Below are positions 13,283 through 17,465 of a DNA stretch of 64,000 nt, in pieces (positions within the stretch are counted from its first letter, which is position 1; every line of letters begins with the position of its first letter). Where the stretch lies: the NCBI RefSeq assembly GCF_963921235.1, contig NC_086097.1, positions 77,440,001 to 77,504,000 of the forward strand. Direction: 5' to 3'. Position numbers and translations under genes: made by a program. The DNA comes from Mobula hypostoma (lineage: Eukaryota). The notes under the pieces were generated by a model. It made no database searches. It was not told where the DNA came from and saw only the letters and a list, made by a program, of their open reading frames with translations.

Positions 13283-13643
13283 ATCTTCTGAATGACTTGG
13301 CAGACCAAGTAGGTATGGCACTTTCAAGCAGAGGAAGGTTCAACATCATGGCCAGAAGCGAGGCAGCAGTGGGGGTGGTTACTTCAAGCCAGGCTGAAAC
13401 ACAGACAAGGCTCCCTCTATCCAGCACAGTGTTAGCAAATATGCAGTTGTTGGAGATCAAAATTGAGGACCTGAGGGAAAGATTGCTGTTTTAGAGGGAA
13501 GTGAGAGGTTGTTCTCTTCTATGTTTGAGTGAGACATAGCTTTCTCCAAGCACACCAGATACAGTGATCAGATCTGAAGATTTCTCGATTTACAGAATGG
13601 ACCAAGCTGCTGATTCAGAAAGCGCAAATGGTGGAGGTGTATG

Positions 13644-13884
13644 TGTGGTAAACCATATATATATGTTGTAACAGGGTTAACTGTCTGGACACGCCCCTCT
13701 GCTGTCTGAACACGCCCCTCTGCTGACTGCCCCTCCCACAGAGCCTGTATAAAGATGTTTTGCCTTGCCCCTCCCCCTCAGTCCGGGGGCAGACACTCAC
13801 TGTGGAGGTCGTATTGTACAGCGAATAAAAGCCTTTCAGTATTTTACCAGACCTCAGTCTTTTGGAGTTATTGAAGGTGCTTCA
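13644..13884 (+). repeat. 5' LTR
   Basis: tgtggtaaacc...gaaggtgcttca; TATA-like tataaa at ~13748; AATAAA at 13824-13829. Confidence 0.96.
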
Positions 13885-13885
13885 A

Positions 13886-13901
13886 TTTTATTCGCTGTAC
13901 A
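13886..13901 (+). promoter_or_regulatory. Primer-binding site complementary to the element's own LTR (putative self-priming)
   Basis: ttttattcgctgtaca is the exact reverse complement of tgtacagcgaataaaa at 13815-13830; no TGG start. Confidence 0.8.
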
Positions 13902-13910
13902 TTTTAAAGC

Positions 13911-14410
13911 ATGGAACATGCACTGAGACCAGACAAATTAGACCTCGATCCGCAAACACCTGAAGCTGGAAACGCTTTCGAACTCTGGCTGGCCTGCTTC
14001 GAAGTGCACCTAGAGGAGATTAAAGCGACCGACCCCGTAGCGAAGTGCAGAGTTCTACTCTCCAGGGTCAGTCCGCAGGTCTATTCGCTGATCAGAGACC
14101 AGCTGAGCTATGATGGCGCGATGCGCACACTCAAAGGACAATACCTGTGGCCAATAAACAGCGTCTATGCTCGGCACCGCTTAGCGAATGGGCAACAACG
14201 GCCCGGGGAATCAAGTGCTGAGTTCGTCCAGGCCCTACAGACGCTCGTGCGAGCCTGCAATTGCCAGGAGCTGACTGCGGTGCAGCATGCAGAGCTCTTA
14301 GTGAGAGACGCCTTCATCACGGGGACCAGGTCAGTGTACGTGCGCCAGCGGCTACTGGAAAAAGCCGATCTTACCCTAAGTTTGGCGATTGAGCTGGCCG
14401 ATACGCTGGA
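13911..14410 (+). pseudogene. gag: gag N-terminal part, truncated by the internal deletion
   Basis: MEHALRPDKLDLDP...ARHRLANGQQRPGESSAEFVQAL...LVRDAFITG...VRQRLLE (major-homology-region-like). Confidence 0.9.
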
Positions 14411-14438
14411 CCCAACAGGAGGCGCATACGGTCGCTCT

Positions 14439-16175
14439 ACTCCCTCTTCCCAACACCCTCAGAGCCCTCAAATGGTGCCTGGGCTTCTTTTCATATTACA
14501 CCCAATGGGTCTCTAACTATGCAGACAAGGCCCGCCCCCTGGTCAAGTCCGCCACATTCCCCCCTCTGCCGAGGCCCGCGCGGCCTTCAACCGCATAAAA
14601 GGGGACATTGCCAAAGCAGCAATGCATGCAGTGGATGAGGCCATTCCCTCCCAAGTAGAGAGTGACGCCTCCGACTTCGCACTGGCTGCTACCCTCAACC
14701 AGGCAGGAAGACCAGTGGCGTTCTTCTCCCGTACCCTTCAAGGCCCTGAAATTCAGCACTTCGCGGTAGAGAAAGAGGCCCAGGCCATAGTGGAAGCTAT
14801 TAGGCACTGGTGGCACTATCTTGCCGGCAGAAGGTTCACCCTGCTAGCTGACCAGCGCTCAGTCGCATTCATGTTTAATAATCAGCAGCAGAGCAAAATC
14901 AAAAATGATAAAATTCTGAGGTGGAGAATCGAACTCTCCACCTACAACTATGACACCATGTACAGGCCTGGGAAGCTCAAAGAGCCCTCCGATGCCCTAT
15001 CCCGGGGAACATGCGCCAGCGCGCAGATCGACCGGCTATACGCCCTACATGTAGACCTTTGCCACCCGGGGGTCACCCGGCTTTTCCACTTCGTGAAAGC
15101 CCGGAACCTGCCTTACTCCCTTGAGGAGATCAGGATGATGACCAGGGACTGCCAAGTCAGCGCAGAGTGCAAACCGCACTTCTACCGACCCGAAAAGGCA
15201 CCACTCATCAAGGCCACCCGCCCCTTTGAGCGACTGAGTGTTGACTTTAAGGGTCTCCTTCCCTCCACCGACCGCAATGTGTACTTTCTTAACGTTATCG
15301 ACGAGTACTTGCGGTTCCCCTTCGGCATCCACTGCCCCGACACCACTACCACGTCAGTTATAAAAGCCCTGCGCAAGCTCTTCACTCTGTTCGGATACCC
15401 ATGCTATATCCACAGTGACAGAGGGTCCTCGTTTATGAGTGACGAGCTGCGCCAATATCTACTGGCTAGGGGAATTGCAACTAGTAGGACCACGAGCTAT
15501 AATCCCTGGAGGAATGGACAGGTAGAGAAGGAGAATAGCACAGTGTGGAAAGCCACACTCTTAGCCCTCAGGTCAAAGGGACTGCCGGTCTCCCGCTGGC
15601 AGGAGGTCCTTCCCGAGGCACTCCACTCCATCTGCTCCCTGTTATGCATAGCCACCAATGCCACCCCTCATGACCGGCTCTTTTCTTTTCCCAGAAAATC
15701 GACCACTGGAACCACCCTACCAACTTGGCTGACGTCCCCAGGGCCAGTGCTGCTCCGGAAACATGTGAGGAGCAATAAATACTCCCTGATGGTCGAGAGG
15801 GTTCACTTACTTCATGCGAATCCCCGGTAAGCCTATGCGGTTTTACCTGATGGGCGGGAGGACACGGTCTCCATCCGCGACCTGGCGTCCGCAGGAGCAC
15901 TGGGCCCCTACCCTGAACGCTCCGTGGTGACTATTAACCCCGTACCCACCGATATATATACTCACCAGATACCGCGCACTCCAAACCCTACACAGACACC
16001 ACATGACACTCCCATACTGGGCGCGACGCACACGCACGAGGGATTACCACCACCTCACGTGCTGACACCTCAAGTTAGGCCGGAGCCAGCACAACCGCCA
16101 TCGCCGGTGCAATCACCACTGGTGCTACGTAGATCACAGCGACAGACTCAACCGCCTGATAGACTTAACCTGTAA
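14439..16175 (+). pseudogene. pol: pol remnant: RT thumb, RNase H, integrase
   Basis: CLGFFSYY; ESDASD...PVAFFSRTL...EKEAQAI; H-x4-H...CQVS (one Zn cysteine lost); VDFKG, SDRG, 35 aa, NGQVE (D,D35E); premature stop at 15828-30; ends PDRLNL*. Confidence 0.93.
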
Positions 16176-16246
16176 ATATACTTCTTGTAAATATTGTCAG
16201 TCACTTCACCCCACGGGACTCTTTTTTAAAAAAAAGGAGGGGTGAA

Positions 16247-16471
16247 TGTGGTAAACCATATATGTTGTAACTGGGTTAACTGTCTGGACACACCCCTCTG
16301 CTCACTGTCCCTGTGGCTCCTCCCACAGAGTCCTGTATAAAGGTGTTCGCCTTGTCCCTCCCCCTCAGTCCAGGGGCAGACACTTGCCGTGGAGGTTGTA
16401 TTGTACAGCGAATAAAAGCCTTTCAGTATTTTACCAAACCTCAGTCTTTTGGAGTTATTGAAGGTGCTTCA
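16247..16471 (+). repeat. 3' LTR
   Basis: Direct repeat of 13644-13884, preceded by polypurine tract aaaaaaaaggaggggtgaa. Confidence 0.96.
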
Positions 16472-17465
16472 GTATGTTTCATGATAAACTCTCAGTGGTG
16501 CTCCAGTATCACATTTCTGTTGAACTCATGTTCCCCTGACCTTGAACACTTCACAGCCAAATGTCATCCACTCTATTTACCTAGGGAGTTCTCCTCCATA
16601 ATCCTGACCACAGTTTACAAACCACCAGGGGCCGGCTAAAATCAAGTGTTTGAGGTTCAGCATGATGCTGTCTCCAAACAAGAAATAGTCCATCCTGACG
16701 CATTTCAAAGCATAGTCAGGGTCTTCAATGAGGCCTATTTGAAGAAAGCCCTGCCCAGTTGCCCTCAGCATATAACCTGTAGCATCAGAGGCCTGAACAC
16801 TCTAGAATACTGTTATACTAAGGGATGCCTACCATTTTACGCCCAGACCACATTTTGGTAAATTGGGTCACTTCGATGTCCTTCTCCTACCTGCATAGAG
16901 GCAGAGGCTAAAGAGCAAAGCTCCAGAGATTAGGGCAACAAAGAAGTGTTTGCGGGAGACAGAGGAGTGGCTACGAGATTGCTTTGATCGGAGGACCAGG
17001 TTCACGGTCTCTTCTGAGGACCTGAATGAATACACCAGGTTGTCATGCACTTTATTAAGACAGTTGTAGATGAATATGTCCCCACAAAATCATTTATAGT
17101 ATTCTCCAACCTGAAGCACTAGATGAACCATTAGATCCACAATCTGCTGAGGGCCAGATCACAGGCATTTAAGTCTGATGACAAAAAAAAGTTACAAGAT
17201 ATCCTGGAATGATCTCAGGAAAGCCATCTCATGGGCAAAGTGGCCATGAAGGATCAATGAAGGATGCTTGACAGTTGTTGGAGGGCTTGAATACTACCTC
17301 CTCTTATAAAGTTAAATCAAGCGACATAGGTGACAACAGAGTTTCATTTCCAGATGAGCTCAATGCCTTCTATGCTTGCTTTGATTGTCAAAACATGGAG
17401 GAGCCACCATAAACTCCCACAGCCCCTGACGACCCTGTCATTTCAGTCTCTGAGGCTAGCATGCA

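Follow-up and report, generated by a model that had tools for sequence, protein, structure and literature searches.

We found that the Ty3/gypsy retrotransposon in our window of the Mobula hypostoma genome (the whole stretch of DNA analyzed, 64,000 nt) probably primes its reverse transcription in a manner similar to Tf1, using a ~51-nt 5′ fragment of its own RNA that ends at the poly(A) signal. Yeast Tf1 has been shown to self-prime, and among animal elements the mechanism has been attributed to the sushi chromoviruses. In the lineage described here, the pairing that LTR and primer-binding site (PBS) form is conserved, covaries and is fixed in register, a TGG site is absent, and an inverted copy is found in integrated DNA. 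The proposal of the first-pass annotation that priming occurs via the element's own LTR rather than a tRNA is therefore supported by a family-wide site, by covariation and by inverted-copy insertions.

The element is 2,828 bp long and has the TG...CA LTRs, target-site duplication and polypurine tract that define a Ty3/gypsy LTR retrotransposon; its best match among solved structures was Ty3. The LTR ends were confirmed by contig runs (n = 4, of uncertain contig type), which yielded neither a start nor a cut nor a poly(A) site. Both the 5-bp target-site duplication and the TATA reported by the first-pass annotation were found in place. The features are as follows (window coordinates).

13639-13643, no strand: left target-site duplication, GTATG
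13644-13884, + strand: 5′ LTR of 241 bp, whose U3 contains a 21-bp tandem duplication (sequence; contig loose ends at 13644 and 13884)
13748-13753, + strand: TATA box, TATAAA (sequence)
13778-13784, + strand: initiator-like TCAGTCC (sequence; inverted-copy ends); the +1 is predicted at A13780, 32 nt past the TATA T
13780-13830, + strand: predicted self-primer, putatively ~51 nt
13815-13830, + strand: PBS-complementary arm, including AATAAA at 13824-13829
between 13830 and 13831, + strand: predicted cut, by analogy with Tf1
13831-13841, + strand: adjacent stem, 5′ strand (predicted fold)
13869-13880, + strand: adjacent stem, 3′ strand (predicted fold)
13886-13901, + strand: primer-binding site, 1 nt past the LTR end, no TGG
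13911-14410, + strand: 5′ part of gag, ATG at 13911, broken by an internal deletion
14517-16175, + strand: remnant of RNase H and integrase with a stop at 15828-15830 and lacking a chromodomain
16228-16246, + strand: polypurine tract and the bases preceding the 3′ LTR
16247-16471, + strand: 3′ LTR, 225 bp, with an identical arm at 16402-16417
16472-16476, no strand: right target-site duplication, GTATG

Comparison with longer copies showed that the copy in the window is a deletion derivative in which ~1.7 kb comprising the 3′ part of gag, the protease and the reverse transcriptase (RT) is gone, with the junction near 14410-14440; it is non-autonomous because of this loss. Its two LTRs differ at 16 of 224 aligned positions. 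The order protease-RT-RNase H-integrase is present in relatives and in copies with long frames, while the copy in the window has neither protease nor RT.

The self-complementary site is as first described: bases 13886-13901 are the reverse complement of LTR bases 13815-13830 in 16 of 16 pairs, a single A (13885) separates them from the end of the 5′ LTR, and TGG is absent. The poly(A) signal AATAAA lies inside the arm. The region 13770-13920 is predicted to fold stably (z = -5.0), with none of 200 shuffled sequences being equally stable. The adjacent duplex that had been proposed between 13831-41 and 13869-80 appears in this fold; however, the terminal pair 13830-13886 has a probability of just 0.14, because 13830 is able to pair in another register. 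There was no Rfam match at the LTR.

The family is abundant in the M. hypostoma genome, where 2,132 exact matches to the arm plus one base occur and a strict pattern finds 499 intact 5′ junctions. Some copies keep frames of ~1,300 codons. The same PBS was present in all 67 junctions that we read from the family of the window element, 18 of which had been selected because their arm varied; at one more locus the arm could not be read. We considered whether other copies might carry a conventional tRNA site. A search for the LTR end followed by TGG and a start codon returned 8 matches with unrelated sequences, which, going by the search output, look like 3′-LTR flanks. No tRNA 3′ end is able to pair with the site, as compared directly for three isotypes (Rfam tRNA search): 20 tRNA genes for Lys, Cys and Thr match the PBS complement over at most 6 nt. 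Neither result contradicts the first reading. Variants at PBS positions 15-16 are inherited by subfamilies with the arm unchanged, as would be expected if the primer sequence is not inherited. Compensation between arm and PBS within the family was considered and rejected: it was seen in 3 of 67 junctions, all at one CpG, and decay explains it. Two 5′-type junctions (G000:C1:230166647 and 230170902) lie 4.25 kb apart on the same strand and are probably tandem elements with a common LTR.

Other elements of the same genome served for comparison. Two other Gypsy lineages (L229-L248) have plain TGG-type sites, presumably for tRNA-Pro; one of these lineages apparently has the integrase upstream of the RT. 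An old sushi-type family (L251-L268) retains, in those copies that are best preserved, a self-complementary site of 11 nt (10-11 nt in 3 of 10). In this sushi control the arm lies ~30 nt after a TATA-like motif, which is the known layout, and a chromodomain-like tail is visible by eye.

To assess the pairing across families, we used a profile built from 44 polyproteins, which gave 88 loci from metagenome and genome collections; 32 of these had a gag start and at least 90 upstream bases and formed the readable set. A blind search found a helix of at least 10 Watson-Crick pairs in 25 of the 32, and in a fixed register, whose anchor was designed after a first inspection of junctions defined by LTR pairs, 11-12 of 12 positions were paired in 27. 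The five non-pairing loci comprise one at a contig end (L085), one with a 5′ LTR deletion that has kept the arm in its 3′ LTR (L104) and three that are degraded or interrupted. The covariation between LTR and PBS that the first-pass annotation proposed as a check was found: across 17 families, each with one representative (the window family plus 16 families that are only distantly related and come from environmental sequences), 135 of the 136 pairs at the variable positions 5-12 are formed with the family's own LTR. Mismatching the families gave 4.4 of 8 pairs, and 20,000 permutations reached at most 101 and never 135, a figure that is no strict probability because the families are related. 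There are 19 distinct PBS 12-mers, each matching its own LTR, the spacing from LTR ends that are set by LTR pairs is 1 nt, and the gag start follows the site by 13-40 nt. Positions 1-3 are always A-U. Position 10 is always G-C (17 of 17 families; 13821 with 13895 in the window) although its neighbours covary, and possible reasons include an enzyme contact or a second cut or start site. The second stem usually begins directly after the arm. Its summed length is 71, versus 51 ± 5 in shuffles (0 of 500), but it does not exceed that of helices beginning 3-7 nt further on, and some families have a short stem or none (pairing probability <0.3 in L100 and L148).

Several further observations were made on the relatives. 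Scans of viral contigs found none. Eight contigs filed in bacterial MAGs (L141-L148) carry these retrotransposons, likely as eukaryotic contamination. Splice-acceptor-like tracts occur in the LTRs of L093, L098, L100, L131 and L148, 27-99 nt upstream of the junction, with donor-like motifs further upstream in L093 and L098, and deep-branching families may thus have LTR introns; an origin of the arm by splicing was rejected, there being no workable intron in the family of the window element. L089 and L141 share GCCGCCATGTTT, which we take to be YY1-like, ~30-40 nt upstream of the junction and just after an initiator-like motif. Its placement suggests a primer of ~45-47 nt in these families.

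If a long primer is copied during plus-strand synthesis, the predicted by-product is an LTR followed by A, the PBS and the upstream part of R in inverted orientation. The predicted junction occurs at 55 genomic places and the reversed control at 0, and a longer pattern adds 4. On reading these 59 places, we found that 57 have an inverted LTR copy and 2 are ordinary 5′ junction variants. Four of the inverted copies terminate opposite 13776-13781, which corresponds to distances of 50, 50, 52 and 55 nt between junction and stop; a start at 51 had been predicted. With all four stops in a 9-nt window, p = 1.7e-5 under uniform stops, or ~1e-4 by hand arithmetic if L369 is counted as a miss, although the 47-55 window was set post hoc. 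One copy (L326) ends at ~51 nt and is followed by a 4 of 5 match to the left target site; another (L359) ends at 50 nt and is followed by three extra bases and a 5 of 5 match; L310 and L324 have no target-site duplication. In L369 (G000:C40:64758315-64758440) the inverted copy runs to ~31 nt and is followed by a whole inverted U5 and arm, that is, another inverted LTR end, which suggests end-to-end template jumping between strong-stop DNAs.

The remaining insertions are longer: 52 of the 57 run past 110 nt as fold-backs. Where fold-backs could be read far enough, 36 of 38 reach the first LTR base and form palindromes of ~390-425 bp with two U3 ends, and a 5-bp duplication (at most 1 mismatch) is present in 9 of the 13 insertions with both flanks. 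Five fold-backs extend through U3 as far as the inverted polypurine tract and internal sequence, and a 5′ primer by itself does not account for these. Non-CpG mismatches showed no excess at positions 17-51 of the fold-back arms (2.3% vs. 3.4%), and no fold-back junctions of other families were found in the 88 fetched loci, a small sample. The long class requires just a plus strand ending in the PBS. The short class maps the RNA 5′ end at ~13780 and most simply represents copied primer; alternatively, it could arise when DNA ending in the PBS copies uncut RNA to the cap, in which case it maps the start and not the primer.

Together with the TATA box at 13748 and the initiator-like TCAGT around A13780, these ends place the arm at +36 to +51 of the probable transcript. 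The first-pass annotation had placed the primer internally, 35-50 nt from the start, and the insertions stopping at 50-55 nt agree with this. One contig (X1 record 3; 2,584 nt, depth 3,243) begins at 13775, aligns over 13775-13884 and then leaves the LTR into other sequence; it could be a host transcript driven by the LTR of a related subfamily, although contigs cannot reveal starts.

We propose the following course of events. Transcription would begin near 13780, as the motifs and insertion ends indicate, and the arm ending in ...TAAA pairs with the PBS, as the covariation shows; in most cases a second stem, which starts with the base that follows, is stacked on this helix. By analogy with Tf1, RNase H would cut at 13830/13831 and leave the 3′-OH of an A pointing into U5. 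The resulting 55-nt minus strong-stop DNA may then jump to the 3′ end via the ~20 nt that would lie between the cut and the poly(A) site. The plus strand would copy the retained primer and produce LTR, PBS and inverted R, as the genomic by-products suggest. In Ty1 and Ty3, the first plus strong-stop DNA includes a copy of the primer and accumulates as a dead end, and the primer sequence is not passed on (PMC5371799). The primer-copying product may likewise be a normal dead end here, so that the primer sequence would not be inherited, and the difficulty posed by a long primer is thereby removed. Occasionally, such a product may integrate directly, or anneal to another LTR copy and be extended into a fold-back with two U3 ends. 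The same pairing would mask the poly(A) signal in the 5′ LTR only, a predicted side benefit and possible second role.

Alternatively, the primer may be short, of 10-14 nt as in Tf1, and made by a second cut or a second start at or near the invariant G, the 50-nt insertions then being DNA that copied uncut RNA. Pairing is near-perfect to position 13 and then decays, to 13, 11, 9 and 6 of the 17 families at positions 14-17; PBS positions 15-16 vary freely; the invariant G-C at position 10 often lies in a TTAGT-like, initiator-like context; and TATA is missing in most families, with only 2 of 17 having one within the LTR (75-83 nt). However, the arm of the window family has no TATA 30 nt upstream, unlike that of the sushi control, positions 11-13 still covary, and no stops were found at 16-30 nt in the 59 places besides the two ordinary 5′ junction variants, in a search that needed 19 nt and to which shorter stops were invisible. 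We therefore regard a short primer as unlikely.

It has also been necessary to consider the identical arm in the 3′ LTR. At the end of the genomic RNA, or of a dimer partner, this arm could pair with the PBS and be trimmed or cut after ...TAAA, and the whole RNA would be the primer. Such priming has the attraction that full palindromes with two U3 ends are its expected read-through product, and the five fold-backs that extend into inverted polypurine tract and internal sequence speak for it as well, but DNA ending in the PBS that anneals to a 3′ LTR yields the same products. The 3′ arm is predicted to be unpaired in place; nevertheless, the 5′ arm, just 55 nt from the PBS, should win the folding (pair probability 1.00). 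Exact removal of the poly(A) tail would be required, and copies that end at the transcription start are left unexplained. We consider this route improbable.

A third alternative is that the pairing is maintained because it conceals the poly(A) signal of the 5′ LTR, with a tRNA fragment, a protein or another RNA acting as primer. AATAAA or ATTAAA stands at the end of the arm in 10 of the 17 families, and the predictions for all 7 families tested have the hexamer paired in the 5′ context (unpaired 0.01-0.20), whereas in the 3′ context it is freer (0.25-0.95). However, the other seven families have non-canonical hexamers and retain the pairing, a register set to one base from the LTR end would not be necessary for masking, and 19 different PBS 12-mers each match their own LTR. 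There is furthermore neither room nor a motif for another PBS, given a gag start 13-40 nt after the site, and masking as the sole function thus has little probability. Conservation across the family and the clade refutes the idea that a tRNA-primed family acquired the match by local inverted duplication or by chance: every one of the 67 junctions read has the site, as do 16 further families, and two other Gypsy lineages of the genome show plain TGG sites. Self-priming with the ~51-nt fragment remains our preferred explanation.

We analyzed the relationships of the lineage with two quick-search RT/RH trees of 57 and 28 rows and with a 17-row RT/RH/IN tree, built without Tf1 itself and without L148, which was too short. 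The lineage forms one clade with support of 100. It stands apart from sushi, a Mag-type group and two tRNA-type groups, the order among the five not being resolved by the quick trees or the LG+G4 tree. Sushi elements of the same genome form a separate clade, and the lineage is not nested within the sampled Mag-type or sushi elements. The one Mag-type group sampled, whose label we assume from a motif and a K02A2.6-like name, and the lineage are separate clades with support of 100 each; no LTR pair was found at the Mag-type loci. The term 'Mag-like' used earlier thus fits the zinc knuckles of Gag and not the position in the RT/RH/IN tree. The absence of a chromodomain was borne out in all six proteins examined (0 of 6), which also lack a Tf2-type SH3. 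By eye against the GyDB table, P0012, P0021 and P0002 have two CCHC knuckles, a GxV/I in place of GPY/F and no chromodomain. The RT catalytic motif is YLDN rather than YXDD in P0011, P0012 and P0021, and P0002 retains YLDD; we found no paper on the YLDN motif, and neither YLDN nor PFGVTNG occurred in the portions of literature supplements checked. The closest named proteins are from rays and sharks, followed by a cnidarian and a nematode, with Trichuris and Actinostola among the named relatives. The lineage is also not limited to vertebrates. Independent evolution of self-priming, as first suggested, was not upheld, since a sister relation to sushi was not rejected (p-AU 0.178). Its probable mode of priming resembles that of Tf1, yet we do not assign the lineage to the Tf1/sushi group.

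A broader picture is conceivable, though we consider it less likely than not as a whole: a widespread animal Ty3/gypsy lineage would self-prime independently of Tf1/sushi with a ~50-nt capped primer cut at its own poly(A) signal, one helix would both prime and silence 5′ polyadenylation, and the dead-end DNA would integrate often enough (57 places vs. ~500 intact 5′ junctions) to seed ~400-bp palindromes that record primer ends. Our main reading would extend self-priming to a separate, abundant lineage with a different geometry, and tRNA-free priming would therefore be no peculiarity of chromoviruses. Self-priming elements would escape control by tRNA fragments. Fold-back and primer-length insertions may make primer ends and RNA starts readable from genome sequence alone, and both kinds could also give rise to hairpin RNA and unstable palindromes. 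Because the junction at 13830/13831 is fixed, cleavage can be tested directly. In the literature searched, a scope that left subscription papers, Repbase and GyDB pages outside, the available text held no report of self-priming in a non-chromoviral animal Gypsy lineage or of such fold-backs.

Among described clades, the candidate name for the lineage is Cigr-1, based on the GyDB feature table; the compact single ORF and short LTRs presumably fit it. The Cigr-1 clade (Ciona) and the Mag cluster likewise have two CCHC knuckles, no chromodomain, no GPY/F and an integrase after RNase H (GyDB table; PMC2774666 supplement 3). The likeness to Cigr-1 is one of feature description, and no statement on its primer site was found in the available text of the literature searched. 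From Mag, the lineage differs in that the sampled Mag-type (K02A2.6-like) group is a separate clade. Self-priming has also been predicted from LTR/PBS complementarity for the plant TAR (Houba, Osr-1) copia and Tcn1 clades, and the same survey lists plant non-chromoviruses as tRNA-primed (PMC6317226); TAR and Tcn1 differ from our lineage in belonging to another superfamily or to the chromovirus branch. The Ty1/Ty3 primer is a tRNA of which 12 nt are copied, whereas here the copy appears to reach the 5′ end of the primer, and the copy is self-complementary and therefore able to integrate or fold back. The Tf1 primer is reportedly not removed, according to the title of one paper. The closest parallel is with Tf1/Tf2 of Schizosaccharomyces pombe, Tj1 and the Tf1/sushi group, which also have no tRNA site, a PBS by the LTR end that pairs with their own LTR and an adjacent duplex, and in Tf1 the primer is cut by RNase H (PMC7175516, PMC10085805 and PMC4600332). 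Of the three-duplex 'pretzel' of that group, we found the central duplex and one adjacent stem; compared with Tf1, the second stem here abuts the primer end, with its other strand 7-49 nt from the PBS. Tf1/sushi elements have a chromodomain at the integrase C terminus, unlike all six proteins examined here, and their primer is the 5′-terminal ~11 nt of the RNA, whereas here the arm lies at +36 to +51 of the probable start.
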